This document shows positions 23,116-38,383 of a stretch of DNA of 64,000 bases, one piece after another. The stretch covers positions 78,292 to 142,291 of the forward strand of contig DATMGL010000008.1 of the NCBI GenBank assembly GCA_035555575.1, given 5' to 3'. Below the pieces are notes generated by a model. It was not told the origin of the DNA and ran no database searches. It saw only the letters and a program-made list of their open reading frames with translations. The stretch comes from Sphingobium sp. GTDB lineage: Bacteria > Pseudomonadota > Alphaproteobacteria > Sphingomonadales > Sphingomonadaceae. The translations under genes were made by a program, and so were the position numbers. How positions within the stretch are numbered: position 1 is the stretch's first letter; the number at the start of each line of letters is the position of its first letter.

Positions 23116-24438
23116 GTGGCGATATTCCGTTATATTATTTGCAGGAAATCGCATCTGTGGCCGACTGCCACGCCGCTCGCCGCGCTCCTGCTTGTCGGTG
23201 CGCAGGCGGCGGATGCGGCGCCCGTGATCCAGCCGCCTGCCGCTATCCCGCAGGACGCCCCCGTTAACCCCGCCGATGATCCGTATCTGGACATGCTTTT
23301 GAAGCAGGCCGTGGCATCGCATCCGTCCATCGGCGCGGCGCGTGCAGCCATAAGGGCGGCGGGCGCCGATATCCGCTCCGCGCACTGGCAGGCCTTTCCC
23401 GCCTTCACCGTGCAGGGGCTTTTGCTCAACGACAGCACCAACGGGCGTCAGGCCAGCCTGGTCGTTGACCAGCCGATCTGGACCGGCGGACGGATCTCCA
23501 GTTCGCTCAGGCGCGCGCGCGCGCAGCACCGGGCAGCACTTGCCGGCTATCAGCAGGCCGTGCTCGACATCATGGTCGGCCTGTCCCGGAGCTACCGCGA
23601 CTATCATCGCCTCAACAGCAAGTTCGCCATCCTGCAGGACAGTCTGACCCGCCACCGGGAGCTGGTCGCCACGATGGAGCGGCGGCTCGCGCAGGAGATC
23701 AGCCCGCTGGCCGATCTCGAACTCGCGCGCAGCCGCACCGCCCAGATCGAACAGCAGGTCGCAACCACCGTCGCGCAGCGCCTGACCACACTCCAGAAAC
23801 TGCGTGAACTGGTGGGCGATCCGGATGTTCGCCCGGGACCGCCCCCGGCCGGCGGACCGCTCGAGCCGCTCGACCTGTCGGAGCTGGTCATGCGCACGCT
23901 CGACTTCGACCCCGGCCGCCAGCGCCTGATCGCCGAAGCGGGCGCGGCGCGCGCAGAGGCAGCCGGCGCAAGGGCATCGATCTTTCCGCAGCTGAGCGGC
24001 CAATACTCCTATGACGACGCCTATGGCCATCGCGTCGGCCTGGTGCTCAAGGCGCAATCGGGCGGCGGCTTTTCGAGCTTCTCCAACGCGGCGGCCGCGC
24101 GGGAACGGCAGGATGCAGCGGAGCTGCGCATTTCCGCCACCGAGCGCGATCTGCGCGAACGCACGACCGCCGATCTCGCCGACTATGAGTCAGCCCGCAG
24201 CCGCATTGCCAGCACTCGCATCGCGCGCGACGCCGCCGATAATGTGACGGCCTCCTACATTCGCCAGTTCACCAGCGGCCGGCGCACCTGGCTGGATGTG
24301 ATGAACGCCGTGCGCGAAGCCACCACGGCGCAAAGCGAAGCCATCGACGCCGAGGCCAGCGCGACGGAAGCGCGCGACCGCCTGCTGATGCGCAGCGGCA
24401 GCTGGCCCTTCCCTGCTGACAGCCAGGACACGCCATGA
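23116..24438 (+). CDS. TolC-family outer membrane protein of a type I secretion system
   Basis: Signal-like N-terminus, QPIWTGG, and GRRTWLDVMNAVRE (TolC/LapE pattern). First gene of a three-gene operon. Confidence 0.9.
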   Translation: MAIFRYIICRKSHLWPTATPLAALLLVGAQAADAAPVIQPPAAIPQDAPVNPADDPYLDMLLKQAVASHPSIGAARAAIRAAGADIRSAHWQAFPAFTVQGLLLNDSTNGRQASLVVDQPIWTGGRISSSLRRARAQHRAALAGYQQAVLDIMVGLSRSYRDYHRLNSKFAILQDSLTRHRELVATMERRLAQEISPLADLELARSRTAQIEQQVATTVAQRLTTLQKLRELVGDPDVRPGPPPAGGPLEPLDLSELVMRTLDFDPGRQRLIAEAGAARAEAAGARASIFPQLSGQYSYDDAYGHRVGLVLKAQSGGGFSSFSNAAAARERQDAAELRISATERDLRERTTADLADYESARSRIASTRIARDAADNVTASYIRQFTSGRRTWLDVMNAVREATTAQSEAIDAEASATEARDRLLMRSGSWPFPADSQDTP

Positions 24439-26534
24439 CAACAGCCTTGATCGCCATGATCGCCACCTATGCGCAGCGGGTCGATGCCCGGCTGCAACCC
24501 GACTGGGCTCGCGATGTGCCCCCGGACCTTGCCGCCAGCACGCCGGATGCGATTGCGCAGCTGAGCGATGCGGCGGGCTGGGCAGCGCCGCGCGCTTTTC
24601 GCGGCCGGCCGAAAGCGCAGCATTTCCCGCTGCTAGCCTTTGCGGAAAGCACGGGATGGTGCATCGCGGACCAATGGACCAGCGACCATGATATCCGCCT
24701 GCTGTCCGGCAACGGCGCGATCTCGCTGCCGTTCGATGCGTTGCTCGACCTTCAGCAACCGACCTTCCCCGCCACGGCGAAGCTGAATACGCAACAGAGC
24801 GCCTTGCGCATCTTCGCGCGGGCGCTGCTCTCGCGGCGGCGCCTTCTCGTCGAGGCGACCGTCGCCACGGTGGTCCTCAACATCATCGCGCTGGCCATCT
24901 CCTTCTATGCCATGCAGGTCTATGATCGCGTGCTGCCGCGCGGAGGCTTCGCGACCTTGTGGGTGCTCACCGGGGGCATGTTGATCGCCCTGCTGATCGA
25001 CTTTCTGATCCGCACCGCACGCGCGTTCATCGTCGACCGGGAGGCCGGCGACATCGACACGCAGATGTCCGAATTCTTCTTCGCCCGAATGCAGGCCGTC
25101 CGCCTCGACGCCCGCCCACCCGGCATCGGCACGATGGCCGCGCAATTGCGCGGGCTCGATCAGATCCGCTCGGCGATGACGTCCGCCTCCTTCTTCTGCC
25201 TGGCGGACCTGCCCTTCGCCCTGCTGTTCATCGCCGTGATGATGGCGATCGGCGGCCCGATCGCGCTCGTTCCGCTGGCGGCGTTTCCGCTGGCGCTGGC
25301 GGCCAGCCTCATCTTCGCCCGGCTCATCAAGGCCGCGACCAACAAGGGGCAGATCAGCAGCAATCGCAAGAACGGCATCCTCGTCGAGGCGCTGGACGCC
25401 TCGGAAACGGTCAAGGCCAATCTGGGCGGCTGGCATATGCTGGCCGGCTGGAACCGGCTGGTCGAGGATGTGCACGAGCATGATCTGCATGTGCGCCGCT
25501 GGTCCTCGATCGCCAGCGCGTCCTTCTCGGTGCTTCAGCAAATATCCTATATCGGCATCATTCTGGTCGGCGTGCACCTCGTCAGCGCCGGCGAACTGAC
25601 GCAGGGCAGCCTGATCGCCTGCACGATGATCGGCAGCCGCGTGAACGGGCCGCTCGTCTCGGCGCTGCCCGGCATGATCATCCAGTGGGGCTATGCCCGC
25701 GCCGCGCTGGACGCGCTCGACAAGCTGCTGGCCATGCCGACCGACCACCAGGCCGATACCGTGCCCGTGCGGCTCAAGGTCATGGCGCCGGACCTGCGGC
25801 TCGAGGCTGTGTCCTTCAAGCATCAGGGCGCCCGCGAGGGCCTCACCGTGCCCTCGCTCACCATCGCCAGCGGCGCGCGCATCGGCCTGATCGGCCCGAT
25901 CGGCTCCGGCAAATCCACCCTGCTGCGCCTGCTCGCCGGCCTCTACGCGCCCGAGGGCGGCCATGTGTTGCTCAACGGGGTCGATGTGCGGCAGATTGCG
26001 GAGGAGGACCTGCGCACGCCCTGTGGCTATATCGGGCAGGATTATCGCCTGATCAGCGGCACGCTGCGCGACAATATCGTGCTCGGCCTCCCCGATCCGG
26101 GCGACGAAGCGATCCTCGCCGCCGCTGCACAGACCGGTCTGGCGCCGGTCATTCAGGATCACCCGCTCGGCCTCGCCCTGCCGATCAGCGAAGGCAGCAT
26201 CGGTCTCTCGGGCGGTCAGCGCGCGCTGGTCGGCCTGACGCGCGCGCTGCTGGCGCGGCCCCGGCTGCTGCTGCTCGACGAACCCACCGCCAATCTCGAT
26301 CAGGAGACTGAACGGCGCGTGCTGGCCGCCTTGCAGGATGCGATGCCGCCGGACGGCATCCTCATCCTCGTTACGCACAAACTGCAACTGTTGCCGCTGG
26401 TTCGCGACGTGCTGGTCATGCGCGCCGGGCGCATCGTGCATCAGGGGCCGAGCAGCGACATGCTCGACAAGCTGCGCCCCAGACCCGCCGCCAAAGCCGA
26501 TGCGGCGCGGCCCCCTCTCCACCGGGTATCCTGA
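24435..26534 (+). CDS. T1SS ABC transporter (LapB/LssB-like, degenerate C39-like N-terminus)
   Basis: FYAMQVYDRVLP, Walker A GPIGSGKST, LSGGQ, LLLDEPT, H-loop VTH. Confidence 0.93.
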   Translation: MTTALIAMIATYAQRVDARLQPDWARDVPPDLAASTPDAIAQLSDAAGWAAPRAFRGRPKAQHFPLLAFAESTGWCIADQWTSDHDIRLLSGNGAISLPFDALLDLQQPTFPATAKLNTQQSALRIFARALLSRRRLLVEATVATVVLNIIALAISFYAMQVYDRVLPRGGFATLWVLTGGMLIALLIDFLIRTARAFIVDREAGDIDTQMSEFFFARMQAVRLDARPPGIGTMAAQLRGLDQIRSAMTSASFFCLADLPFALLFIAVMMAIGGPIALVPLAAFPLALAASLIFARLIKAATNKGQISSNRKNGILVEALDASETVKANLGGWHMLAGWNRLVEDVHEHDLHVRRWSSIASASFSVLQQISYIGIILVGVHLVSAGELTQGSLIACTMIGSRVNGPLVSALPGMIIQWGYARAALDALDKLLAMPTDHQADTVPVRLKVMAPDLRLEAVSFKHQGAREGLTVPSLTIASGARIGLIGPIGSGKSTLLRLLAGLYAPEGGHVLLNGVDVRQIAEEDLRTPCGYIGQDYRLISGTLRDNIVLGLPDPGDEAILAAAAQTGLAPVIQDHPLGLALPISEGSIGLSGGQRALVGLTRALLARPRLLLLDEPTANLDQETERRVLAALQDAMPPDGILILVTHKLQLLPLVRDVLVMRAGRIVHQGPSSDMLDKLRPRPAAKADAARPPLHRVS

Positions 26535-27737: not shown

Positions 27738-28373
27738 ATGGCGACTTATATCTATGAGGCTCGTCGACATGGGAGAATATCCCCCTATCTGATCTCGCTC
27801 TGGAGCGGATATCATGCCGCGGCCCTGACGCTTTCGGCTTTCGTGCTGCTCAATCTCTGGTCGGACAACCCCACCGGCACCTTTGGCGGCCTGATCTTCG
27901 CCTGCATGATCGGCGGCGCGCTCGGCGGCCGCTTCGGCCAGATGCTCGCACGCCGGCCACCCTATATGATGCGCCTCATCCTGCTGCTCATTCTCGCAGC
28001 GATCCTCTCCGGCATCACAGCCATCTATGGCGAGGGTCTCGCAGGCTTCATGCTTCAGGGAGACGAGAGCAGCAGCCTCGCCACCTTGCCCGTCACGGGT
28101 CTGCTGTTCGTGCCGCCACTCCTGTTACTGGCCGCGCTCCCGTCTTATGCAACGGCCGTGCTGCGGCGTCGTCGCGGCAGCGCGGGTTCGGCCAATGGCG
28201 CGATATCGCTGTTCACCTGGACCGGCTATGGGCTCGGGATCATTGTGACAAGCCGCTGCTTCGCCCATGGGCTTGAGCCATGGACCATGTTGAAAAGCCT
28301 GGGCATTATCGCACTGATCCTGGCGCTCGCTGTCCTGCCCAGGCATCTGCCGCGCCGCGCCAGAGGACGCTGA
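27738..28373 (+). CDS. Hypothetical multi-pass membrane protein
   Basis: 211 aa ORF with ~6 hydrophobic segments, preceded by GGAAG. Confidence 0.5.
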   Translation: MATYIYEARRHGRISPYLISLWSGYHAAALTLSAFVLLNLWSDNPTGTFGGLIFACMIGGALGGRFGQMLARRPPYMMRLILLLILAAILSGITAIYGEGLAGFMLQGDESSSLATLPVTGLLFVPPLLLLAALPSYATAVLRRRRGSAGSANGAISLFTWTGYGLGIIVTSRCFAHGLEPWTMLKSLGIIALILALAVLPRHLPRRARGR

Positions 28374-28438: not shown

Positions 28439-29779
28439 TCAGGCGCTGTTTCCACGCGAGAATTTCGACGCGATATAGGCATTCTCGTTCATCTGGTGCT
28501 CAAGCTGCCCTTCCAGCTCATGGATACGCTGCGTCAGTTGCTCGATCGAAGCGGCGTAACTGACTTCCATATCCTGATTGCGCTGGGTGAGCGTCGACGC
28601 CTCATTCTCCAGCCGCCGGATATCGACTTCGCTGACCCGCAGCGACTGGGAGAGGGCGTCAATCCGGGCGACCATCGCCAGCCGCGCCTGATCGAGCTGC
28701 TTGCGCGCGTTCAGCGCAGCTTCGCCGTCGACCGTGAGCCGGCCTACCTTGGCCTCGTAACGGGACATCTGGACTTCGTTGCGCCGGTTGGCCTCCAGCG
28801 CCTCGCGCAGATCCTTGGCGAATTTCTCATTCTCGCTCTTCAGGTCGGCATTGACCTTCTGAAGCATATGCTCCCGGGCGTGAACGGATTTCAGCTCATT
28901 GTTGAGCACGCCGAGTTGCTCGTCCTTCAGGCGGACGTCTTTCTGATAGCGCTCGAAACTCGCCGTCAACTCTGTCCGGCTATCGCTCACCAACTTGTCG
29001 AGATGGGCTTTCTCTTTCTCCACCTGATGGGTTTCATGGACCAGCCGGGCATTCTCATCCCGGGCGCCGGCAAGCTGCTCGTCCTTCTGCCGTAATTCGC
29101 TGTCCAGCACGTCGCATCGCTCGCCCAGGCTCGTCGCCTTCTCGAAGCTGTCCTGATATTTTCCCGAGAGACTGTCGATCCGCTGCTCGTCATGGGCGAC
29201 GGTGAGTTTGAGCGCCGCACATTCCTGCCGCAGGACGGTTTCCTCATCGGCCGCGGCCGCCAGCGCCGTCTGCGCTTCCTGGAGCTTCTCCTCCAGTTCG
29301 CGTTTCGCCACGCCGAGAAGCTGCACATTCTGCTCATAGGATTCGATGTTGGCGAGCGCCTTCTCCAGCTTCATCTCGCCATCATCATAGCTGGCGCGCA
29401 AGGCTTGATGGTCCTCCTCCACCTGCGAGCAATGCAGCTCCAGCCCCTGAAGCTCCGCTTCAAGACGCTCCTTGTCCCGCCCGAGCGTGACATTGAGCAG
29501 GGCGAGATCATGATATTGCCGCAGGAAATGGTCGAACGTCCGTCGCAGGTCCGTAATGTCGGCCGCCAACGCGTTGACATGCGCCAATCGGCCATCGAGA
29601 TCGCCAAAAATATCCCGGATGTTGCCGGTTCGCTCGCCCAGATCGCCAAACAAGGCCGCATTCAGCCGCCCGTCCTTCTCCACGAAGGACACAACGCTAG
29701 ATACATTGCCTCCGCCTGTATTCAATGCGAGAGCGGCAGATTGATCCTTCCTCGCGAAAATATTGAATAGCCTGGCCAT
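28439..29779 (-). CDS. Crescentin-like long coiled-coil (intermediate-filament-like) protein
   Basis: 446 aa with a short head and a continuous heptad-rich rod. GERTGNIRDIFGDLDGRLAHVNAL and DQARLAMVARIDAL recall Caulobacter CreS segments (from memory). Confidence 0.6.
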   Translation of the reverse strand: MARLFNIFARKDQSAALALNTGGGNVSSVVSFVEKDGRLNAALFGDLGERTGNIRDIFGDLDGRLAHVNALAADITDLRRTFDHFLRQYHDLALLNVTLGRDKERLEAELQGLELHCSQVEEDHQALRASYDDGEMKLEKALANIESYEQNVQLLGVAKRELEEKLQEAQTALAAAADEETVLRQECAALKLTVAHDEQRIDSLSGKYQDSFEKATSLGERCDVLDSELRQKDEQLAGARDENARLVHETHQVEKEKAHLDKLVSDSRTELTASFERYQKDVRLKDEQLGVLNNELKSVHAREHMLQKVNADLKSENEKFAKDLREALEANRRNEVQMSRYEAKVGRLTVDGEAALNARKQLDQARLAMVARIDALSQSLRVSEVDIRRLENEASTLTQRNQDMEVSYAASIEQLTQRIHELEGQLEHQMNENAYIASKFSRGNSA

Positions 29780-29834
29780 ATCTTTCCTATCAGTCAGTTG
29801 ATTTTTTTAGAGCTGCTTCCGTCATTCCGATCGG

Positions 29835-30395
29835 TCACTTGCCGGAAATTGCGTCAAAATATTCCGTCATGCCGTCGAACCCGGTTTTCGTCATTCTTTG
29901 ATATTGGACTCTTCCATCCAGATGGGACGACTTCTTGGTTATCAATCCCACATCCTCCAGATGCTTTATCCACCGGAGCGCCGTGCTGTTAGGAGCAGAG
30001 GATGACAGGACGAGATTGCTCGTCGAAATGTTTTCATCCTTGATCTCGCCGGCATAAAGCTCCAGCAACATGTCCCAGCCAGGTTCACCAAAGATCTTCT
30101 TGTCGAAATAGCGCTCACGCATTCGCCGAGATCGATATTGATGCTTGGCGAAGTCCGCGAAACTGCCTTTCGACCAGATATGATAATCCCCCTTGGAAGG
30201 GAGATCATCGAGCGTCGCGCCGACCATGACCATCGCCTCTGATTCCGCCTCATCCGCCATGGACAGGATATCCCGCGCCATCGAGCGGAATTGCGCGGCC
30301 CGCTCGAACAGTTCCTGCGCGCGGCCCTTATCGTTTTTCGGCTTTTCGAAAGGAGCCAGTCGGCCCAGATATTGGCGAACTATTTGCACCGTCAT
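29835..30395 (-). CDS. MarR-like winged-helix transcriptional regulator
   Basis: FGEPGWDMLLELY...STSNL..SSAPNSTALRWIKHLEDVGLI...DGRV is a typical sphingomonad wHTH family pattern. Confidence 0.8.
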   Translation of the reverse strand: MTVQIVRQYLGRLAPFEKPKNDKGRAQELFERAAQFRSMARDILSMADEAESEAMVMVGATLDDLPSKGDYHIWSKGSFADFAKHQYRSRRMRERYFDKKIFGEPGWDMLLELYAGEIKDENISTSNLVLSSSAPNSTALRWIKHLEDVGLITKKSSHLDGRVQYQRMTKTGFDGMTEYFDAISGK

Positions 30396-30660
30396 GACCT
30401 ATCTTTCATTTCGAGCATCGCTTTGAAAGAACATGCCTTCACTGAAGGTCTCTGCGAGACGCAGCGCCATCCTCCCCCGCTCAGGAAGAAGTCTGTCGCT
30501 GCGCCTCGCCTCCCCGATGCGACCCGAGGGACACCAACCAGACCCACGCACCATGCGGGAATCGTCGGCGGAGATGACCGCAAGACGCGCGGCAAATGTC
30601 GCGCGCCCGGCACCGCAGTGATGTCGCGTCCATGATGACCGGGGGTGTGGCGGCCCTCCA

Positions 30661-30855
30661 TCAGAAACCGCCCCGCGTCAGTGCGATGATCGCCCACCAC
30701 AGCACCACGGAAACAGGCGTTGCGACGGCCATGCCCTTGACGAACATATCGCCGTCATCGGGCCAGGTTTCCGCCCGCCGACAGGCTTGATCATGCTCGC
30801 CCGCCGCCGCTGTCCATATGCGGTCCCGGCTCTCCTGTCGGTCAGCGAGCGACAT
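30661..30855 (-). CDS. Small hypothetical membrane protein
   Basis: 64 aa, starting 40 bp after the TpsA stop behind GGGAG. C-terminal TM MAVATPVSVVLWWAIIAL. Confidence 0.4.
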   Translation of the reverse strand: MSLADRQESRDRIWTAAAGEHDQACRRAETWPDDGDMFVKGMAVATPVSVVLWWAIIALTRGGF

Positions 30856-30895: not shown

Positions 30896-33800
30896 TCAGT
30901 CCAGATCGCTTGCTGTGAGTTCACGCGCCATTTCGAGACCCGGATCATCGAGCTGGATCACAATCGCGGTGTAACCGCGCCGCAGCAGGTCGCCGAGGCC
31001 GCCGACCCCGTTGACGACAACGGGCGGCTGCGCACCGCCTGCGCCCCCGTCCGGTGCGAGCAGAGCGAGGGCCAGGTGCGCAGGAAGGCTGATCTCGCCC
31101 CCGGCGCCGATCGTCCCGCCGGCAGGAAGAACGAACCGGTCGATAATGATCTGGCTGGGGCTGATGTCGCCATTCCCCACCACCGGCTGATCATTGACAA
31201 TGAAGGAACCGCTTTCATTCGTGGTGATCTTGCCGAACGCGCCGGTCACTGTTCCGCCCGGCGCCTTCACCGTTACCGCACCGCCATTCACCTGAACGTC
31301 GAGCGGCGTGTCGGAGGTCAGGGCGACGGCCCCGCCGGCGCTGATCCGCGATGTCACCGCGCCGGGCGCCGCCACGGCGACACCGCCCCCCGCCGTGATC
31401 GAACTCGAGATGCCACCGGCGCCGGCGGTGAGCGAGGCATCGCCCGTCGTGACGACCTGCGAACTGATCGAGCCCAGGTCCGCACGGACATTCACCGGCC
31501 CGCCGGCGTTGATGCTGCCGCTGACGTCGCCACTGGATGCCGTAAGACTGACGCCGCCGCCGGCCGTGACGTTGCTCGATATCCCCGTCTGCGATGCGAT
31601 GGTGGCCGTGCCACCTGCCGCGATGGAGCCGCCGACCGCGCCGCCGGCCGTGACCGTCACGCCGCTTTGCGACGACACATTGCGCGCGACATCGCTCATA
31701 TAGGCGAGCAGGACCGGCCCGCCCGCAATGATTGATCCGGTGCCGGAGTCATTGGCGGTGACCGCAACGGAACCGCCCGCCCGGATCGGCCCGCTCTCGC
31801 TGCCCGCCACCGAGGCGCTGACATTGCCCAGCGTATCCAGCGTGTTCGCGGTGAACCGCTGGTCGCCACTCAGCTGCGACGCGAAATCGCCCGCCAGCTT
31901 CACCGTCGCTGCGGAGAAATCACCGCCGGTGATCGTCAAGCTGCCGAGCCGCAGCGCATCGCTGCCGACATTGCCGAGCAGGATGGCACCTTCACCCGTT
32001 GCGCCCGCGAGGCCGGAACCGGTGACGATCTCGACATTCTGGCCGCCATGGCTGGTCCCGATCAGCTGCGCGCCGATCGTCACCGCGCCACGGGCGGGCC
32101 GCGTGTCGAACTGCGTGACCGATCGGGTCACGCGCACCGTCGCATCGGCAGCGTCACCGGATAAGCGCAGGCTGTTCGCGGCATAGCGCGCGCCGTTGAG
32201 TATCGTCCGGTTCGCTACCATGTTCACCGCGTCGAGCCGGACCCGGCTGCCCAGCGCGCCGAGTTCCGCCGTGCCGGCATGCACGGTAAAGCCCTGCCGC
32301 CCCGCCACGGTTCCATCCACCATGCCGAACCGCGCGGTGCCCGAGGCGACCAGGTTGGTGCTGCCGGTCAGGCTCGTTGCGCCATCGACGGTGAAATCAC
32401 GCGCGTCATAGCTGCCGGAAAGACTTGTCGCGCCGGTGTAGCGCTGGCTCCCGCTCGTGGTGACGTCGGCCGTGACAATCGTCGTGCCGGTCACGCCGAG
32501 CCCGGCAAGCGACGACTGGCCGAGGCTCACCCGCCCGCCGGCCAGTGTGAGCGCCGCGGTGCCGGTCACGCCGGCGATGCTGATATCGCCTGCGAGCGCA
32601 TGGATGCTGGTGTCGCCGTTCAGCAGGAGCCTGTCGGCGGTAAAATCCCCCGTAGCGAGCGTCAACTGGCCGATGAGGCGACTGCCGGCACCGGCCAGCG
32701 TCAGCCCATTAAGGGTCACATCGCCGAAGTTCAGCGTGCGAATGCCGCGAAGCATGGCATTCTCGGCATAGGTGCCGGACGCGACATGGATGGCATCGCC
32801 GTCGGTCGAGGCGGCAAACGCCGTCTGGATCGACAAGGCCGCGCGGCCGCCGCCAGCAAGCGTCCCCCGTCCAACGTGGAAATCCGCACTATTGCCGGTG
32901 CCGCTCCAGCCCTGCACGACGCTCGCGCCCGTGGCGCCAAGGTTTACAGCAAAGTCGAAGGCGTTTTGACGGCTGTTCTGGAAGTAGGTGAACTGCGCCC
33001 CATCAGGCCGATGCGCGTCGTTCCGAACCGTAAAGCCATAGCCCGCAATGGTGAGCAGGCCCGGGTCCAGCAGCGTCGAGGAGTCCTGCAGATAAAGACC
33101 GGCCGCCTCGCCAAACCGGTTGCTCGCCTCGATCACCACGCCGGTCAGTTGCTGATTGCTGCCGCCCCCGGCGACATTATTCGCCTGATAAAGCGCCAGG
33201 CCGCCCCAGGCGTTGCCTGAGGTGTGGCTGTTACGCACCGTCACGTTCGCGCTGTCGGTGATCGCGATCCCGGTGCCGGCCGTCACGCCGGTCACGGTCA
33301 CGCCGTCGATCAGCGCGCCGACCGCCGCATTGAGGTCAAGGCCGGTCTTGCGCGAGCCGTTGATCGTCACATCGGTGATCGAGAAGCCGGTGTTGCGGGC
33401 AAAGGCGTCGCCCACCGCTTCGACCTTGATGCCATAATTGGAATTGCCCAGCGCGGCCGACGAGCCGTTGAGCGTGAAGCCGCTCAGCGTCACCGCGTCA
33501 CCCTTGACGCGGATGCCATAGCTATTGTGGCCGCTGGCATCGAGCAGGGTGACGCCCTGCCCCTGCCCGCTCACGGTCATGCCCTTTTCGAGAAGCAGGG
33601 TGTTGGTGAGCAGATGCGTGCCTGCCGACAGGTTGAGCACATCGCCTGCCGTCGCGAGCGATACCGCCCGCAGCGCACTATCCGGGCCCGAACCGGACGT
33701 CACGAAAAGCTGGCCAGCGACCAGACGGGCAAGGCCGGCGCCAGCCACATCGACACCATGGGTGATCAGGTCTTCGAGCGTGAACAGCTCATCCAGCGCC

Positions 33801-36800
33801 AGATCACCTGCCCGCGTGCCGTTGAACGACACGCCGGTCAGGTCGAGCGAGCTCCCGCTGCGCCACATGATATGCTGGACCGTGTCCGCGCCGGCGACGA
33901 AGTCGTTGATCCCCGCGAAGCTGATCGTGCCCGCACCGGACAGCGTGGTCGGCAGGTAGATCGCATAGCCATTGTTGACGAAGCTGTTGTCGATGAAGCG
34001 GGTCGTGCCCGGCAGCGCATAACCCGGCTCGACCGCGAACACCTGATGATTGTTGGTGAACTGATTGCCGGTGACGTTGAGCGTGCCGACATCCCGCATC
34101 ATCAGCACCGCGCCATAGGTGGCCTCGCCGGCAGGGGTCCAACTGCTCGTGCCGACATTGCTGACGCGGTTGCCGGTAAAATCCACCTGACTGGCGCGGA
34201 AAGCCTTGAAAATCGCGCCGAACGACTGATCCGAAGCGCCGCCATTGCGGACGATATTATCAGCGATGGTGATCGTCGGATAAGCGCCCGCGCCCGCCTG
34301 TTGGCGCAAGGCAATGTGCCCGGCCGTATTATCCAGCAGATTATCCGAGAAGACAGCGCTGCTGATCTGCGTGCCATCCGTCGCGGTGCCCGCGCCGCTG
34401 CGCGTATCGAAGGCCGCCCAGCCGCGAATGTTGAGGAACTGCGAATTGGTGATCGAGATGGCACCACCATATTGGCCGCCCGAGAAGCCGTGGCGCCCGG
34501 CCACGCCCTCTCCATCGATCCGCACGCCGTCCACCGTCAGGTTGGTCACATGCCCGCCGCCGATCACGGACGAGCCCGCCGCGCCGCTGACGGCGAAGTT
34601 GCTGAGCGTCAGGTCGCTGAACGTGCCGGAGAGCTGGATACCGCCGGTGAGCAGGGTCGCGCCCATGCCCGCGCCGTTAAGCGTGAGGCCCTTGTCGATC
34701 GTGACGGTCTCCGCGAAGGTTCCAGCGCCCGCATTGATCGTGCCACCGGCCCGCGCATCGCGTATCGCGGTGTTGATCGAGAGGCCGTCAATCACGGAGA
34801 AGATGTTGGTTCCGAAACCGTCCGCGAACCCCTCGATCGAGCTGGCGCCTGCCGTGCCGATGCCCAGCGCGAAGGCGGCGGCGTCGTCAAAGCTGGTGCG
34901 GTAGAAGGCGAACTGGCTATCGAGGCCGTCGCTACGATGATCGCTGTTGCGCACCACATAGTCGAAGCCCGCCAGATGAAGCGGCCCGAAGCCTTGCGTG
35001 ACCGATTCAAGCTGCGAGTAGAGGCCGATCGCCTCCTCAAACCGGTTGTCGCTGGCGTCAATGGTGATCCCGCCGGTCTGCCCGCTATAGCCGCTCGCCT
35101 TGTTGGCCTGATAGAGCGCGACCCCGCCCCACTCGTTGCCGAGCGTGTGGACGCCGCTCAGCGTCACATTCGCGCTGTCGGTGATCTGGATGCCGGCGCC
35201 GCCGGTCAGCACCGCGGGATCGGCCACGCTGCGACCATCGGCCGTGACATTGGTGATGGTCGCGCCCACCACACCGTTGAGATCCAGCTCGGCGCGGCGT
35301 GACCCGCGGATCGTCACATCGCTGATCGCAAAGTTGGACAGGCGCTGGCTGGAGCCGCCGGGGGTGTTCACATGGCCCGCCGGATCGGGCTGGACCTTGA
35401 TCCCATAGTTGCCGAGCAACTGTTCACTGCCATAAAGGGTGAAGTTGCCGAGCGTCACATTGTCGGCGAAGACCGAGATCGTGCCCAGACCATTCGAGCC
35501 CGGACCGGTGCCGACAGCACGCCCGTCGAGGATCACCCCCGCCTCGGATTGGCCGATCAACGCGATCGACCTGGCGATCACGAGCGGAGACCCGCCCAGA
35601 TCATAGGTGCCGTTCAGCATCCGCACCGTGTCGCCGGCCTGCGCGACGGCCACCGTCTCCGCGATGCCGGTGGTGATCGCGATCGTTTCGTAGCTCTCCG
35701 CCCCGTCAATGACCTCGACACCGCGCGCGCGGCCATCGCTCCTGAAGGCCAGCACGCCGCCATCGCCAAAGATGTTGTCGGTGAAGATGTGGCCCCAGTC
35801 GAGTGCCTCGCTGAGGATACCGACAGACCGCACGGGCACATCGACACCGCTGAAGCTGTTGCCGGTGATCGTGGCGGCCCCGGTCGGGTCCTGCTGCCAG
35901 CCGATAGCCGGAATGCGCCCCTGGAACTGGATGCCGCCCTGTCCGGCAAGATCATTGCCGAAGAACTGGTTGCCCGAGAGGATGCGCTGCGACGCGGCGC
36001 TGTTGAGGCCGACACCGCCGGCGATCTTCACCATGGCGCTGGGGATGCTGCCATGGGTTGCCGCGCTGCCCCCGTAGAAGATGTTGTCCTCGAGCGTGAA
36101 GCGCTCGACAATGTCGCCTTCGCCAAAGCTGCTGATGAAAAAGTTGATCTCGGTCGCGTTGCCGCGATTGTCGATCACCGAATGACGCATGGTGAACGCG
36201 TCGCCGATCACCTCGAACGCCTTGTTGTCGCCATTGGCATAGGGCTTGAAGCCCAGCCCCTCGATCGTCACGCCCGTGCCGGAGACGAAATGCTGCGCGC
36301 CAAAACCGGCCTGATGGGCAGCGGTGACATAAGCGGCGACCGCGTTGGCATCGGTGATCGCGGCCCCTTGCGCATCGACGCCGCGGATCGTGATATGATC
36401 CTTGGTAACATACAGGCCGAACATCTGGCCGCCGGCCCCGCCGAAATAATCGACGCCGGTCACGCCTTCGATATAGTCGCCCGGCCGCACCGTGACCGTG
36501 CCACCGGTGACGACGGCGTCGACGCCGCCCTGCACCGTGTTGATCGGGCTTGGCGCCGCGCCCTGCGCGTTCGTCGTGCCGGCGGGGTCGACAGTCACAT
36601 GCGTGCGGTTCGACGCGGTATAAGCCTGATTATAGACCGAGAGCCCGCCATTGGCCCGGCTCAGCGCCAGCAGCCGTGCCTGTTCATCAAGCGATGGCCC
36701 CGCCCCCAGCAAGCCGTTGCCCGAGGTGGTGGCGCTCCCGTCCCAGATGCCGTTCAGATGGAGGATGACGCCCCATTCATTGCCGAACGGGCCATCCTCG

Positions 36801-38383
36801 TTGCCGCTGATATTGAATCCCGGCGCCGCGGCATCGACATATTGCACGGAGATCGCGCTCTTGGTGTTGTCGATCAGATTGCCGGTGATCGCAAGGCTGG
36901 TGGCGCCGCGCCCGTCGACCAGCAGGCCGTTACGGACGCCGGTGATCACATTATCGGCGATCGTCGCATTGTCCACGCCATTGGCCAGCGCGATGCCCCG
37001 CGTGATCGACCCGTTCCAGTCGACATCCCACGCCGCCTGATCCGCAGGCAGCGTGCCCGCGAATGTCAGGCCCGTGACCCTCGCGCCGTTGCCGCTGACG
37101 TTCAGGCCGTTGATCGGGCCACCGGTCAGCGGCACCCGGATCGTCGCGACGCCGCCGCCGTCGATCGTGACATTGTTCCGGCCGATCGTCGCGCCGGCGG
37201 CATAAATGCCCGCGCCAAGGTCAAGCGTGGTGCCGCCTGCCACCATGCCGATCACGCCCAGCGCATCCGCGATGAAATTGCCGTCACCTGTCGTATCCGC
37301 ACCGTTCACGTCGAGGGCGAGCGAGAGCGCCCCGCCGGTCACGCCGATGCTGCCCGCTCCCAGGATATGCCGGGCACCGAGCGCCAGATGGCCCGTCGCC
37401 GCGACATCGTCCGCAACGTTGATCTCGTTGACAGCCTCGACACGCGCACGGCCGGCCGCACCTGCGTCGATGCCGCCGCCCAGCCGGACATTGCCGGTGC
37501 CAGCCGACAGCAGGATGGTGCCATCCGGGTCCGCGGTTGCGCTCGCCACGGAGATGACACCGGTATTGACCACCTGATCAATCACCGCGCTCACAGCCTT
37601 CGCGGTCATCAGGACATGTCCGCCGCCTGCGTTGATCGTGCCGCTATTCTCTATGAGCGCATTGTCGCTGCCCAGTCCGATCTCAAGAAAGCCGGTGCCG
37701 TCCAGATCGAGCGTGGCGCTGCTGCCAGACGCGAGCATCACATGGCCGAGGCGGGCGTTGATAATGCCCTGATTGCGAACGACCGGCGCGAAGAAGGCGG
37801 CGATCCCCTGATCGGCGATGCTGATGCTTGCGCCAGCTTGGACGATGATTTCGCTGGTCGAAGCGCCGGACGCTGCAAAGGTGATCGGACCGCCGCTCAT
37901 GAAATTCTGATCGACGATAGTCGCAGTGCTGGCGATCAACCCGCCCACATTGACATCCGCCGTGCCGGCAAAAAGAACGCCGTTGCCGTTGATCACCGCA
38001 ACGATCCCGTTGGCGTTGAGCTGGCCGGCGATTTGCGAGGGCGCATCCCCCCCAACGACCCGGTTGAGCGCGACGGAACGGCTGCCGGGCTGGGAAAAGT
38101 TCACCTGCGCCCCAGAGCCGATATCGAAGCTGTCCCAGTTGATGAGCGCCCGGTCACTCGTCTGGGTGATCTGCAACGTGCCGCCGCCCGGCGCGCCGAT
38201 CGTCGCTGTGCCACCGACCACCACACCGCCGGTCGGGAGCGCGCTGGCATCCTGCGCGAACACAGGCCGCGCGGCCACCAGTGCGAGCAGTGCGGCCGAT
38301 GCCATGAGCATGGGCCGCGGCCGCAAGAGCACGCCACGACCAGTCGGATCAGCGACCGCTCCAGCGACGTTATACTTGCTCAT
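30896..38383 (-). CDS. Two-partner secretion exoprotein (TpsA, filamentous haemagglutinin family) with parallel beta-helix modules
   Basis: Signal peptide ending ..VFAQ. TPS domain ALINWDSFDIG...ALNRV...GQLNANG..INGNGVLF. G/T/S/N/V-rich beta-helix repeats. Adjacent to TpsB. Confidence 0.9.
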   Translation of the reverse strand: MSKYNVAGAVADPTGRGVLLRPRPMLMASAALLALVAARPVFAQDASALPTGGVVVGGTATIGAPGGGTLQITQTSDRALINWDSFDIGSGAQVNFSQPGSRSVALNRVVGGDAPSQIAGQLNANGIVAVINGNGVLFAGTADVNVGGLIASTATIVDQNFMSGGPITFAASGASTSEIIVQAGASISIADQGIAAFFAPVVRNQGIINARLGHVMLASGSSATLDLDGTGFLEIGLGSDNALIENSGTINAGGGHVLMTAKAVSAVIDQVVNTGVISVASATADPDGTILLSAGTGNVRLGGGIDAGAAGRARVEAVNEINVADDVAATGHLALGARHILGAGSIGVTGGALSLALDVNGADTTGDGNFIADALGVIGMVAGGTTLDLGAGIYAAGATIGRNNVTIDGGGVATIRVPLTGGPINGLNVSGNGARVTGLTFAGTLPADQAAWDVDWNGSITRGIALANGVDNATIADNVITGVRNGLLVDGRGATSLAITGNLIDNTKSAISVQYVDAAAPGFNISGNEDGPFGNEWGVILHLNGIWDGSATTSGNGLLGAGPSLDEQARLLALSRANGGLSVYNQAYTASNRTHVTVDPAGTTNAQGAAPSPINTVQGGVDAVVTGGTVTVRPGDYIEGVTGVDYFGGAGGQMFGLYVTKDHITIRGVDAQGAAITDANAVAAYVTAAHQAGFGAQHFVSGTGVTIEGLGFKPYANGDNKAFEVIGDAFTMRHSVIDNRGNATEINFFISSFGEGDIVERFTLEDNIFYGGSAATHGSIPSAMVKIAGGVGLNSAASQRILSGNQFFGNDLAGQGGIQFQGRIPAIGWQQDPTGAATITGNSFSGVDVPVRSVGILSEALDWGHIFTDNIFGDGGVLAFRSDGRARGVEVIDGAESYETIAITTGIAETVAVAQAGDTVRMLNGTYDLGGSPLVIARSIALIGQSEAGVILDGRAVGTGPGSNGLGTISVFADNVTLGNFTLYGSEQLLGNYGIKVQPDPAGHVNTPGGSSQRLSNFAISDVTIRGSRRAELDLNGVVGATITNVTADGRSVADPAVLTGGAGIQITDSANVTLSGVHTLGNEWGGVALYQANKASGYSGQTGGITIDASDNRFEEAIGLYSQLESVTQGFGPLHLAGFDYVVRNSDHRSDGLDSQFAFYRTSFDDAAAFALGIGTAGASSIEGFADGFGTNIFSVIDGLSINTAIRDARAGGTINAGAGTFAETVTIDKGLTLNGAGMGATLLTGGIQLSGTFSDLTLSNFAVSGAAGSSVIGGGHVTNLTVDGVRIDGEGVAGRHGFSGGQYGGAISITNSQFLNIRGWAAFDTRSGAGTATDGTQISSAVFSDNLLDNTAGHIALRQQAGAGAYPTITIADNIVRNGGASDQSFGAIFKAFRASQVDFTGNRVSNVGTSSWTPAGEATYGAVLMMRDVGTLNVTGNQFTNNHQVFAVEPGYALPGTTRFIDNSFVNNGYAIYLPTTLSGAGTISFAGINDFVAGADTVQHIMWRSGSSLDLTGVSFNGTRAGDLALDELFTLEDLITHGVDVAGAGLARLVAGQLFVTSGSGPDSALRAVSLATAGDVLNLSAGTHLLTNTLLLEKGMTVSGQGQGVTLLDASGHNSYGIRVKGDAVTLSGFTLNGSSAALGNSNYGIKVEAVGDAFARNTGFSITDVTINGSRKTGLDLNAAVGALIDGVTVTGVTAGTGIAITDSANVTVRNSHTSGNAWGGLALYQANNVAGGGSNQQLTGVVIEASNRFGEAAGLYLQDSSTLLDPGLLTIAGYGFTVRNDAHRPDGAQFTYFQNSRQNAFDFAVNLGATGASVVQGWSGTGNSADFHVGRGTLAGGGRAALSIQTAFAASTDGDAIHVASGTYAENAMLRGIRTLNFGDVTLNGLTLAGAGSRLIGQLTLATGDFTADRLLLNGDTSIHALAGDISIAGVTGTAALTLAGGRVSLGQSSLAGLGVTGTTIVTADVTTSGSQRYTGATSLSGSYDARDFTVDGATSLTGSTNLVASGTARFGMVDGTVAGRQGFTVHAGTAELGALGSRVRLDAVNMVANRTILNGARYAANSLRLSGDAADATVRVTRSVTQFDTRPARGAVTIGAQLIGTSHGGQNVEIVTGSGLAGATGEGAILLGNVGSDALRLGSLTITGGDFSAATVKLAGDFASQLSGDQRFTANTLDTLGNVSASVAGSESGPIRAGGSVAVTANDSGTGSIIAGGPVLLAYMSDVARNVSSQSGVTVTAGGAVGGSIAAGGTATIASQTGISSNVTAGGGVSLTASSGDVSGSINAGGPVNVRADLGSISSQVVTTGDASLTAGAGGISSSITAGGGVAVAAPGAVTSRISAGGAVALTSDTPLDVQVNGGAVTVKAPGGTVTGAFGKITTNESGSFIVNDQPVVGNGDISPSQIIIDRFVLPAGGTIGAGGEISLPAHLALALLAPDGGAGGAQPPVVVNGVGGLGDLLRRGYTAIVIQLDDPGLEMARELTASDLD

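Follow-up and report, generated by a model that had tools for sequence, protein, structure and literature searches.

A MarR-partnered coiled-coil protein in a sphingomonad adhesin island and its probable remote kinship with crescentin

The gene described here lies on the minus strand of a 64,000-nucleotide stretch of DNA from Sphingobium sp. (contig DATMGL010000008.1 of assembly GCA_035555575.1), hereafter called the window, and encodes a coiled-coil protein of 446 residues (the query). Comparison of family profiles and of the interruptions in the heptad register indicates that the query is a remote relative of crescentin (CreS), the filament protein to which cells of Caulobacter vibrioides/crescentus owe their bend, and it is accompanied by a gene for a MarR-fold protein within an island of adhesin and secretion genes. 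The features of the gene itself are as follows.

28439..29779 (-): coiled-coil gene, predicted to be crescentin-related; ATG start, 446 residues, 50.3 kDa, isoelectric point (pI) 5.19
29782..29788 (-): Shine-Dalgarno sequence AGGAAAG, read from the sequence, with 2 nt spacing to the ATG
29747..29779 (-): codons 1-11, MARLFNIFARK, candidate membrane-association segment, aligned with the start of CreS (MRLLSK..R)
29621..29779 (-): head region, residues 1-53, with an AlphaFold2 predicted local distance difference test score below 50 for residues 1-34
28448..29620 (-): coiled-coil rod, residues 54-444 (about 390 residues), from AlphaFold2 helices and heptad analysis
28973..28996 (-): +4 register shift, residues 262-269; family-profile break at 268/269, coinciding with the AlphaFold2 break at 262-268
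28547..28567 (-): C-terminal stutter (+4), residues 405-411, with core positions M404, Y408, I412 and L415

The protein and its family

One public annotation (P0001) gives a 417-residue product of the same gene from an internal GTG start. Because a Shine-Dalgarno sequence precedes the upstream ATG, the N-terminus is conserved, and the homologues measure 444-447 residues, the 446-residue form is the correct one, the annotated start being placed 29 codons too far downstream. The N-terminal motif MARLFxIFxRK is common to all homologues in the alignment of the query subfamily (A1), with M1, A2, L4, I7 and F8 invariant and R3 and R10 nearly so, and it is basic and amphipathic in character (net charge of +2 to +3, hydrophobic moment of 0.58-0.71). 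The deepest-branching Pfam-positive crescentin, P0096, starts with MSKLSDLFGRKG, an N-terminus that bridges the query family and CreS, in which the N27 region mediates membrane association (PMC3087291).

AlphaFold2, run on the family alignment, models residues 1-53 as a head of low confidence, followed by a helix (54-261), a break (262-268) and a second helix (269-444), a layout that, together with the open reading frame (ORF), agrees with the head-plus-rod protein of 446 residues proposed in a preliminary description made from the DNA letters alone. Two blocks are invariant in A1. The first, FGDLGE+T..I..F.D.D.RL.H, lies at the junction of head and rod; its opening part, FGDLGE+T..I, begins in residues 44-53, the block reaches H67 in the rod start, and it is aligned with CreS 36-62, a stretch contained in the assembly-critical CreS subdomain N28-79 (PMC3087291). 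The second, ELEGQLEHQ.NENAY, forms the end of the rod.

An indexed search recovered ten homologue clusters with 50-67% identity to the query, each of about 446 residues and with a rod free of insertions and deletions. A profile search run exhaustively over 1.84 billion representatives brought in some 20 further, more remote full-length relatives of 438-458 residues (E 1e-66 to 1e-26), beneath which ranked unrelated coiled coils of the 'sticky' kind. The wider family (P0097-P0116, 438-458 residues) is metagenomic, is encoded in loci of 46-60% GC, is 22-31% identical to the query, begins with the motif MATIFxLFSR, and has the same break architecture as the query subfamily. No description of the query family, which is a small one, was found in Pfam, in NCBIfam or in the literature resources consulted.

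Relationship to crescentin

Kinship with crescentin was assessed by profile-profile alignment against A2, a diverse alignment of 15 crescentins that are 22-80% identical to its first sequence. With the query subfamily alone (A1), hhalign returned a probability of 97.2%, E 3e-11 and a score of 89, as compared with at most 39 for reversed or block-shuffled A2, and at a looser threshold the alignment extends over 1-440 versus 2-439. With the enlarged family (A3, 22 sequences), the match rises to 99.1%, E 2e-18 and a score of 145, collinear over columns 41-448 in both alignments, while the decoys scored 38-42 when reversed, 35-50 when shuffled in 28-residue blocks and 39-75 when shuffled in 56-residue blocks. 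A family of SMC arms (18 sequences, same order) reached at most 55 against A3 and at most 54 against A2. The preliminary description had allowed that the likeness might prove no better than that to SMC and other generic coiled coils; the score of 145 (89 for the narrow subfamily) stands well above the ceiling of 55 for the SMC arms.

When the CreS hidden Markov model (HMM) was run against the 4,142 ORFs of at least 200 residues in the genome to which the gene belongs, a genome that has an SMC gene, only the query matched (E 9e-11, 39.1 bits), the next ORF having E 0.28. The reversed query scored -1.4 bits, and heptad-preserving shuffles averaged -14 to +5. The use of the HMMER bit score as proof was nevertheless dropped after the scores of sticky coiled coils, given below, had been seen, and was replaced by decoy calibration and family-level controls.

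The hhalign signal is distributed unevenly along the protein, being strong in the rod at 269-405 (64.7 versus 14.3 for the reversed decoy) and at the C-terminal end (36.8 versus 13.9), and modest at the head and rod start (27.9, probability 57%, decoys at most 19). Two pairings that had previously been made by eye are reproduced in the looser-threshold alignment of A1 with A2, namely that of GERTGNIRDIFGDLDGRLAHVNAL with CreS GQRYETIHGGLDSIGRVMEHLKAI near the rod start and that of DQARLAMVARIDAL with CreS DTARATAIERADQL late in the rod; the CreS sequence used for that purpose agrees with the entry 8afl_A (457 residues) of the PDB. Several members of the wider family have Rod_CreS as their top Pfam match, nearly full-length but at 35 bits or less. 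On the evidence of these sequence profiles, the similarity to crescentins lies clearly above the coiled-coil background, and the homology, though very distant, is real.

The architecture of the rod points in the same direction. Register breaks, located by the heptad phase of family-averaged hydrophobicity, fall at 64/65 (+3), 268/269 (+4) and 405/406 (+4) in the query family; the corresponding breaks of crescentins are 55/56, 265/266 and 402/403, and in each family 137 residues separate the second break from the third. The analysis recovers the published stutter of CreS at residues 406-409 (PMC10873595), where the CreS core is formed by V402, H406, I410 and L413. Both +4 shifts (~253-287 and ~400-410) recur in every independent subset of the crescentin family and of the query and wider families, whereas generic coiled coils are without the shared pattern, P0124 for example being an unbroken heptad run of 380 residues. 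The query, as judged from its sequence, keeps the largely continuous rod of ~365-390 residues with a stutter near the C-terminal end that characterizes the crescentin superfamily.

The same analysis draws attention to a feature of crescentins themselves: some 140 residues ahead of the stutter already published, a second +4 shift (A2; CreS ~253-266) is kept in crescentins of the Caulobacter type as well as in distant ones. Linkers were placed within the rod by older domain models, whereas the cryo-electron microscopy study gives a continuous helix there.

In overall dimensions, the query and CreS (PDB 8afl, 8afh) are closely alike, with 446 versus 457 residues, 50.3 versus 49.9 kDa and pI 5.19 versus 5.23. 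Both start in a similar way (M-A/x-R-L-F/L...R-K) and consist of a short head, a largely continuous rod of ~365-390 residues and a minimal tail, and both have heptad shifts in the same order and spacing with the stutter ~30-40 residues before the rod end. They differ in that the query is only ~20-26% identical to CreS, scores below both Pfam thresholds, and falls outside the crescentin clade; moreover, true crescentin genes sit among housekeeping genes, whereas the query gene belongs to an accessory island of adhesin genes and is paired there with a MarR-fold partner of its own.

The gene neighbourhoods of the wider family (coiled coils of 438-461 residues) bear on the nature of the superfamily. 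The regions concerned are listed below.

L021:1706-4138
L023:1999-3603
L025:680-2342
L031:3357-6145
L032:81-1730
L033:1-1668
L034:334-2037
L038:1108-3635
L039:3498-6352

At least six distinct loci carry a bactofilin-like ORF of 72-97 residues 10-30 bp downstream of the coiled-coil gene, one of these ORFs exceeding the Pfam threshold (29.7 bits) and the rest scoring 19.6-26.6. A gene of the MreB family (437-443 bits) follows the coiled-coil gene in four loci, and in L031 the order is coiled coil, bactofilin, MreB; in L021, L031 and L039, no mreCD follows the MreB gene. These loci have no secretion genes nearby, no adhesin island and no preceding MarR-fold gene. Association with such neighbours suggests that the superfamily is cytoskeletal, and coiled coil, bactofilin and MreB may together make up a cytoskeletal cassette of three filaments, hitherto undescribed, in taxa with a GC content of 46-60%.

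Several results weigh on the other side. On Pfam Rod_CreS (PF19220, gathering cutoff 100) the query scores 14.0 bits (E 0.027), in a sub-threshold alignment of residues 102-433 with model positions 21-345 of 359 that is accompanied by a dozen generic coiled-coil Pfam families of similar weight, and it has no match to CreS_N (PF25217, cutoff 27 bits) at E up to 1. On CreS_N, the score of CreS itself is 158 bits, and on Rod_CreS true crescentins reach 119-218 bits even where their identity to CreS is no more than 30%; by these curated thresholds the query is not a crescentin. NCBIfam returned SMC_prok_B at 44.6 bits (cutoff 567), over arm positions 689-955 only, and the query is without globular domains such as the ATPase heads and the hinge of SMC and Rad50 proteins. 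Although crescentin is present in the PDB as 8afl_A, it was missed there at E up to 10 both by phmmer with the protein and by hmmsearch with the family profile, the best and still marginal PDB profile matches being fragments of keratin-10 coil 2B and vimentin coil 1B (E 0.004-0.16); a direct BLASTP comparison of the query with CreS gave 26% identity at E 0.015. The single-sequence searches (Pfam, NCBIfam, phmmer, hmmsearch and BLASTP) yielded only generic or sub-threshold matches and neither proved nor refuted the crescentin claim. Sticky coiled coils (P0124 and P0128, which match more than 100 Pfam families) reach 29-49 bits on the CreS HMM, and when the CreS profile is aligned with single sequences by hhalign, the sticky P0124, P0128 and L002 score 50-62 (P0124 and P0128 by themselves 56-62) and the query 48. 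Because single-sequence scores are thus matched by unrelated coiled coils, the case for homology rests on the family-level scores, the collinearity and the break architecture. There are further weak points: the first half of the rod gives little signal (45.6 versus 36.2 for the reversed decoy), the hhalign alignment of the C-terminal part and the stutter-based alignment are offset by one heptad, and the query subfamily has neither bactofilin nor MreB as a neighbour. The AlphaFold2 monomer is a folded-back hairpin with a predicted template modelling score (pTM) of 0.27, uninformative on the oligomeric state. Finally, in a MAFFT/FastTree phylogeny the crescentins form one clade with a support of 1.0, and the query subfamily stands outside it as a long-branch clade of its own (1.0) that joins the wider family with a support of 0.83. 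On account of this placement, the query family is filed as a sister family of crescentin and not as crescentin. The label 'crescentin-like' under which the protein was first described therefore survives as remote homology and shared break architecture, and fails at the Pfam thresholds and in the tree.

Eukaryotic intermediate-filament proteins (vimentin, keratins) resemble the query in their head-rod-tail plan, in having a stutter towards the C-terminal side of the rod, and in that conservation is highest at the rod ends, but their rod is ~310 residues long versus ~390 in the query, in which no L1 and L12 linkers are evident. The query scores 10.3 bits (E 0.52) on their rod family PF00038 (cutoff 40 bits), below the level of membership, and common ancestry with these proteins cannot be claimed. 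FilP and Scy of Streptomyces and Ccrp of Helicobacter, other bacterial filament formers rich in coiled coil, are comparable in that they act without nucleotide and have been implicated in the shape or mechanics of the cell (PMC2680258, PMC2776988). Their architectures differ from that of the query, FilP and Scy for instance having 51-residue repeats, and no specific sequence relationship emerged, although none was tested for. Phage tail tape-measure proteins have been proposed as the ancestors of crescentins (PMC12700997), and CreS has weak tape-measure matches among PHROGs; the query has no PHROG match at E up to 0.01, and such an origin was rejected for it for want of PHROG support.

The MarR-fold partner and the adhesin island

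The genes and elements around the coiled-coil gene that enter the argument are as follows.

29835..30395 (-): MarR-fold winged-helix partner gene, 186 residues, exactly 55 bp upstream of the coiled-coil gene
30445-30540 (-): two-hairpin element upstream of the MarR-like gene, conserved in five loci with compensatory base changes
30661..30855 (-): small membrane ORF, 64 residues, with a C-terminal transmembrane segment and the motif ETWPDDG..FVKG...LWW.IIAL
30896-38383 (-): TpsA of a two-partner secretion (TPS) system, on the same strand as the coiled-coil gene
27738..28373 (+): 211-residue membrane protein, final gene of the type I secretion system (T1SS) operon and a constant neighbour of the module in L011-L016 and L027
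26537-27688, convergent: HlyD of the T1SS operon
24435-26534, convergent: ABC component of the T1SS operon
23116-24438, convergent: OEP component of the T1SS operon

The gap of 55 bp behind a MarR-like gene and the common strand with TpsA are exactly as first described. The designation MarR-like stands at the level of the fold, since the family profile of the partner matches MarR and PefR in the PDB (E 2e-4), its AlphaFold2 model is a winged helix-turn-helix of MarR topology with a beta-wing, and Foldseek retrieves MepR and PefR (E 1e-5, probability 1.0); it does not stand by the Pfam threshold, as the protein scores 17.8 bits on Pfam MarR against a cutoff of 24.6. The upstream partner therefore has a MarR fold. 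It carries in addition about 70 N-terminal residues absent from ordinary MarR proteins, among them a nearly invariant long helix at 22-57 (LFERAAQFRSMARDI.AMADEAEAEAM), which could serve as a dimerization element or as an element docking on the filament. Seventeen homologues of the partner were found, the longer of which share contigs with coiled-coil homologues, one being labelled Sphingomonadales, and the two genes are strictly co-inherited at a distance of 37-55 bp.

The small membrane ORF is aligned with ORFs of 47-62 residues that closely precede the MarR-like gene in four further loci. The two-hairpin element was considered as a leader RNA, a riboswitch or an operator, and these interpretations were rejected: it has no Rfam match, and copies recur throughout the genome (about 9 for the stem, more than 30 for the first box), which makes it a dispersed repeat resembling repetitive extragenic palindromic (REP) elements. 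Neither iterons nor specific operator repeats were found upstream of the module.

The query subfamily occupies six distinct loci with the same gene order. Upstream, and co-oriented in 6/6 loci, the order begins with EAL and/or TpsB/TpsA genes, behind a tyrosine recombinase in some cases; next comes, as a rule, the membrane ORF of 47-64 residues, and then the MarR-like gene of ~185 codons and the coiled-coil gene. Downstream, in five of the six, the convergent genes for a 212-residue membrane protein, HlyD, ABC and OEP are followed by a divergent gene for a giant Big_12/Big_13 protein. The contig of the sixth locus, L026, ends shortly beyond the coiled-coil gene.

Two local departures from this order may be mentioned. 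In L026, whose coiled-coil gene encodes P0009, the most divergent member of the subfamily, an ORF of 186 residues with a weak Trans_reg_C match (L026:10336-10896) follows at once on the same strand in a stop-then-start arrangement, where the other loci have the convergent T1SS. In one relative, a UDP-glucose/GDP-mannose dehydrogenase gene (L012/L013:9445-10755) stands between the coiled-coil gene and the convergent 212-residue membrane gene, and because of this insertion the junction is regarded as a site of gene gain.

Present in the genome of the window, the query family was not found in 100 other species of the genus, in 200 genomes of the order or in 400 of the class, a scan of GTDB species representatives with the A1 profile yielded no relatives, and the 211-residue membrane gene of the island was likewise not found in the 100 genomes of the genus. 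The GC content is 59.4% in the coiled-coil gene and 53.1% in the partner gene, as compared with 65.4% in the genome and 62-68% in the neighbouring genes. From the absences within the genus and the conserved synteny of TPS, T1SS and giant-adhesin genes, the earlier placing of the gene in an accessory surface island is borne out; the module is an accessory trait of rare occurrence within an island of adhesin genes. In view of its patchy distribution and low GC content it may, as had also been suggested, be laterally mobile.

Proposed function and alternative explanations

We consider it probable that the query is a remote crescentin homologue of sister-group rank that acts as a membrane-attached envelope filament within a MarR-partnered module of the adhesin island. 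By analogy with CreS (PMC10873595, PMC3087291), parallel coiled-coil dimers would associate into stable, static filaments independently of nucleotides. The basic and hydrophobic segment MARLFxIFxRK at the N-terminus would attach the filaments to the cytoplasmic membrane on its inner side; their assembly would be driven by the head block aligned with CreS N28-79 and by the rod ends, and the stutter would tune lateral association. A filament of this kind would serve the envelope as a mechanical or organizing element, the likeliest result being curvature of the cell, although both filament formation and an effect on cell shape are here inferred from the analogy. A distant crescentin homologue has been shown to restore curvature in a creS deletion of Caulobacter, the background in which the Chelatococcus homologue was expressed (PMC12700997). 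The MarR-fold protein, as the product of the first gene of the two-gene module, would most simply be its transcriptional regulator.

Expression of the module may be linked to the adhesive lifestyle and, as the preliminary description had supposed, co-regulated with adhesion. As the upstream genes are co-oriented in all six loci, read-through from the adhesin operon is possible, in which case the filament would co-vary with adhesion. Curvature of Caulobacter is thought to aid surface colonization (PMC12700997), so that an adhesin-linked shape filament would be functionally sensible. A bolder reading, which we put forward only tentatively and hold to be doubtful as a whole, is that crescentin represents one branch of a wider superfamily of ~450-residue proteins with a stutter-bearing rod, another branch of which travels as the cassette of crescentin-like protein, bactofilin and MreB, and that the sphingomonad branch has been captured, along with its MarR-fold partner, in a horizontally acquired island behind an invertible phase-variation switch and cyclic di-GMP phosphodiesterase genes, where a curvature- or envelope-shaping filament would be switched ON and OFF together with the adhesins. 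If this were true, cell shape would be a phase-variable accessory trait.

Of the explanations that compete with an envelope filament, the one that survives best, although we regard it as unlikely, is that the query is a coiled-coil scaffold specific to the island, which positions or tethers the T1SS, the TPS system or the giant adhesin and has no role in cell shape, the likeness to crescentin being one of ancestry and architecture only. The invariant position of the gene downstream of TpsA/EAL in 6/6 loci, and convergent with the T1SS and the giant adhesin in five, would fit such a role, as would the equal absence of the 211-residue membrane gene and of the query family across 100 genomes of the genus and the lack of bactofilin or MreB neighbours in the query subfamily. 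The six loci come, however, from related sphingomonads, so that the synteny may be mere inheritance; the wider family has cytoskeletal neighbours and no secretion genes nearby, and the conserved stutter and the head block aligned with CreS point to assembly of the crescentin type.

It is considerably less probable that the MarR-fold protein is a DNA-binding adaptor docked on the filament through its N-terminal helix, the pair organizing or tethering DNA according to the logic of TubR/TubZ or ParR/ParM, with a polymer of intermediate-filament type in place of theirs. Such an arrangement would account for the strict co-inheritance of the two genes 37-55 bp apart and for the nearly invariant extra helix at 22-57 that ordinary MarR proteins lack, but no iterons or specific operator repeats were found upstream and the conserved hairpin is a dispersed REP-like repeat; filaments of the crescentin type are static and nucleotide-independent, and thus poorly suited to segregation, and a MarR-type autoregulator is simpler.

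No more credible is a generic coiled coil with only SMC- or myosin-like similarity, possibly folded as an antiparallel hairpin. It can draw on the SMC_prok_B match in the arm region, on the similar single-sequence scores of sticky coiled coils against the CreS profile, and on the top Foldseek matches of the AlphaFold2 monomer, which are hairpins of SMC arms. These Foldseek matches are non-significant (E at least 0.16), however, and the hairpin is an artefact to be expected of a monomer model (pTM 0.27); the SMC-arm profile stays at or below 55 where crescentin reaches 145, no other of the 4,142 ORFs is significantly matched by the CreS HMM even though the genome has an SMC gene, and the signal is lost in reversed and shuffled decoys, whereas the positions of the heptad breaks are shared with crescentins.

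That the query is a secreted substrate of the adjacent, convergent and complete T1SS (OEP, ABC, HlyD) can be practically dismissed, as neither RTX nor Big repeats were detected in it, the giant Big_12/Big_13 protein beside the T1SS is the obvious substrate, its C-terminus is the invariant coiled-coil end ELEGQLEHQ.NENAY and not a typical secretion signal, and its homology is to a cytoplasmic filament protein.

The probable existence of a sister family that keeps the rod length, the register breaks and the stutter of crescentin and is missed by the marker PF19220 bears on the origin of crescentin and on the spread of intermediate-filament-like cytoskeletons in bacteria. Members of this family occur in the accessory island of a sphingomonad as well as in uncultured taxa of lower GC content. 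The combination of family profiles, heptad-preserving decoys, an SMC control and break positions may serve as a recipe for separating true coiled-coil homology from background. The latest survey, for which PF19220 was the clade marker, concluded that no groups other than Caulobacteraceae and Hyphomicrobiales have crescentin-like proteins (PMC12700997), whereas the host of the query is a soil sphingomonad. Apart from the query, a Pfam-positive crescentin of 496 residues, 50% identical to CreS (P0085), bears the NCBI label of a Sphingomonas fennica metagenome-assembled genome and, if it is not a binning artefact, would place a bona fide crescentin as well outside these two groups.

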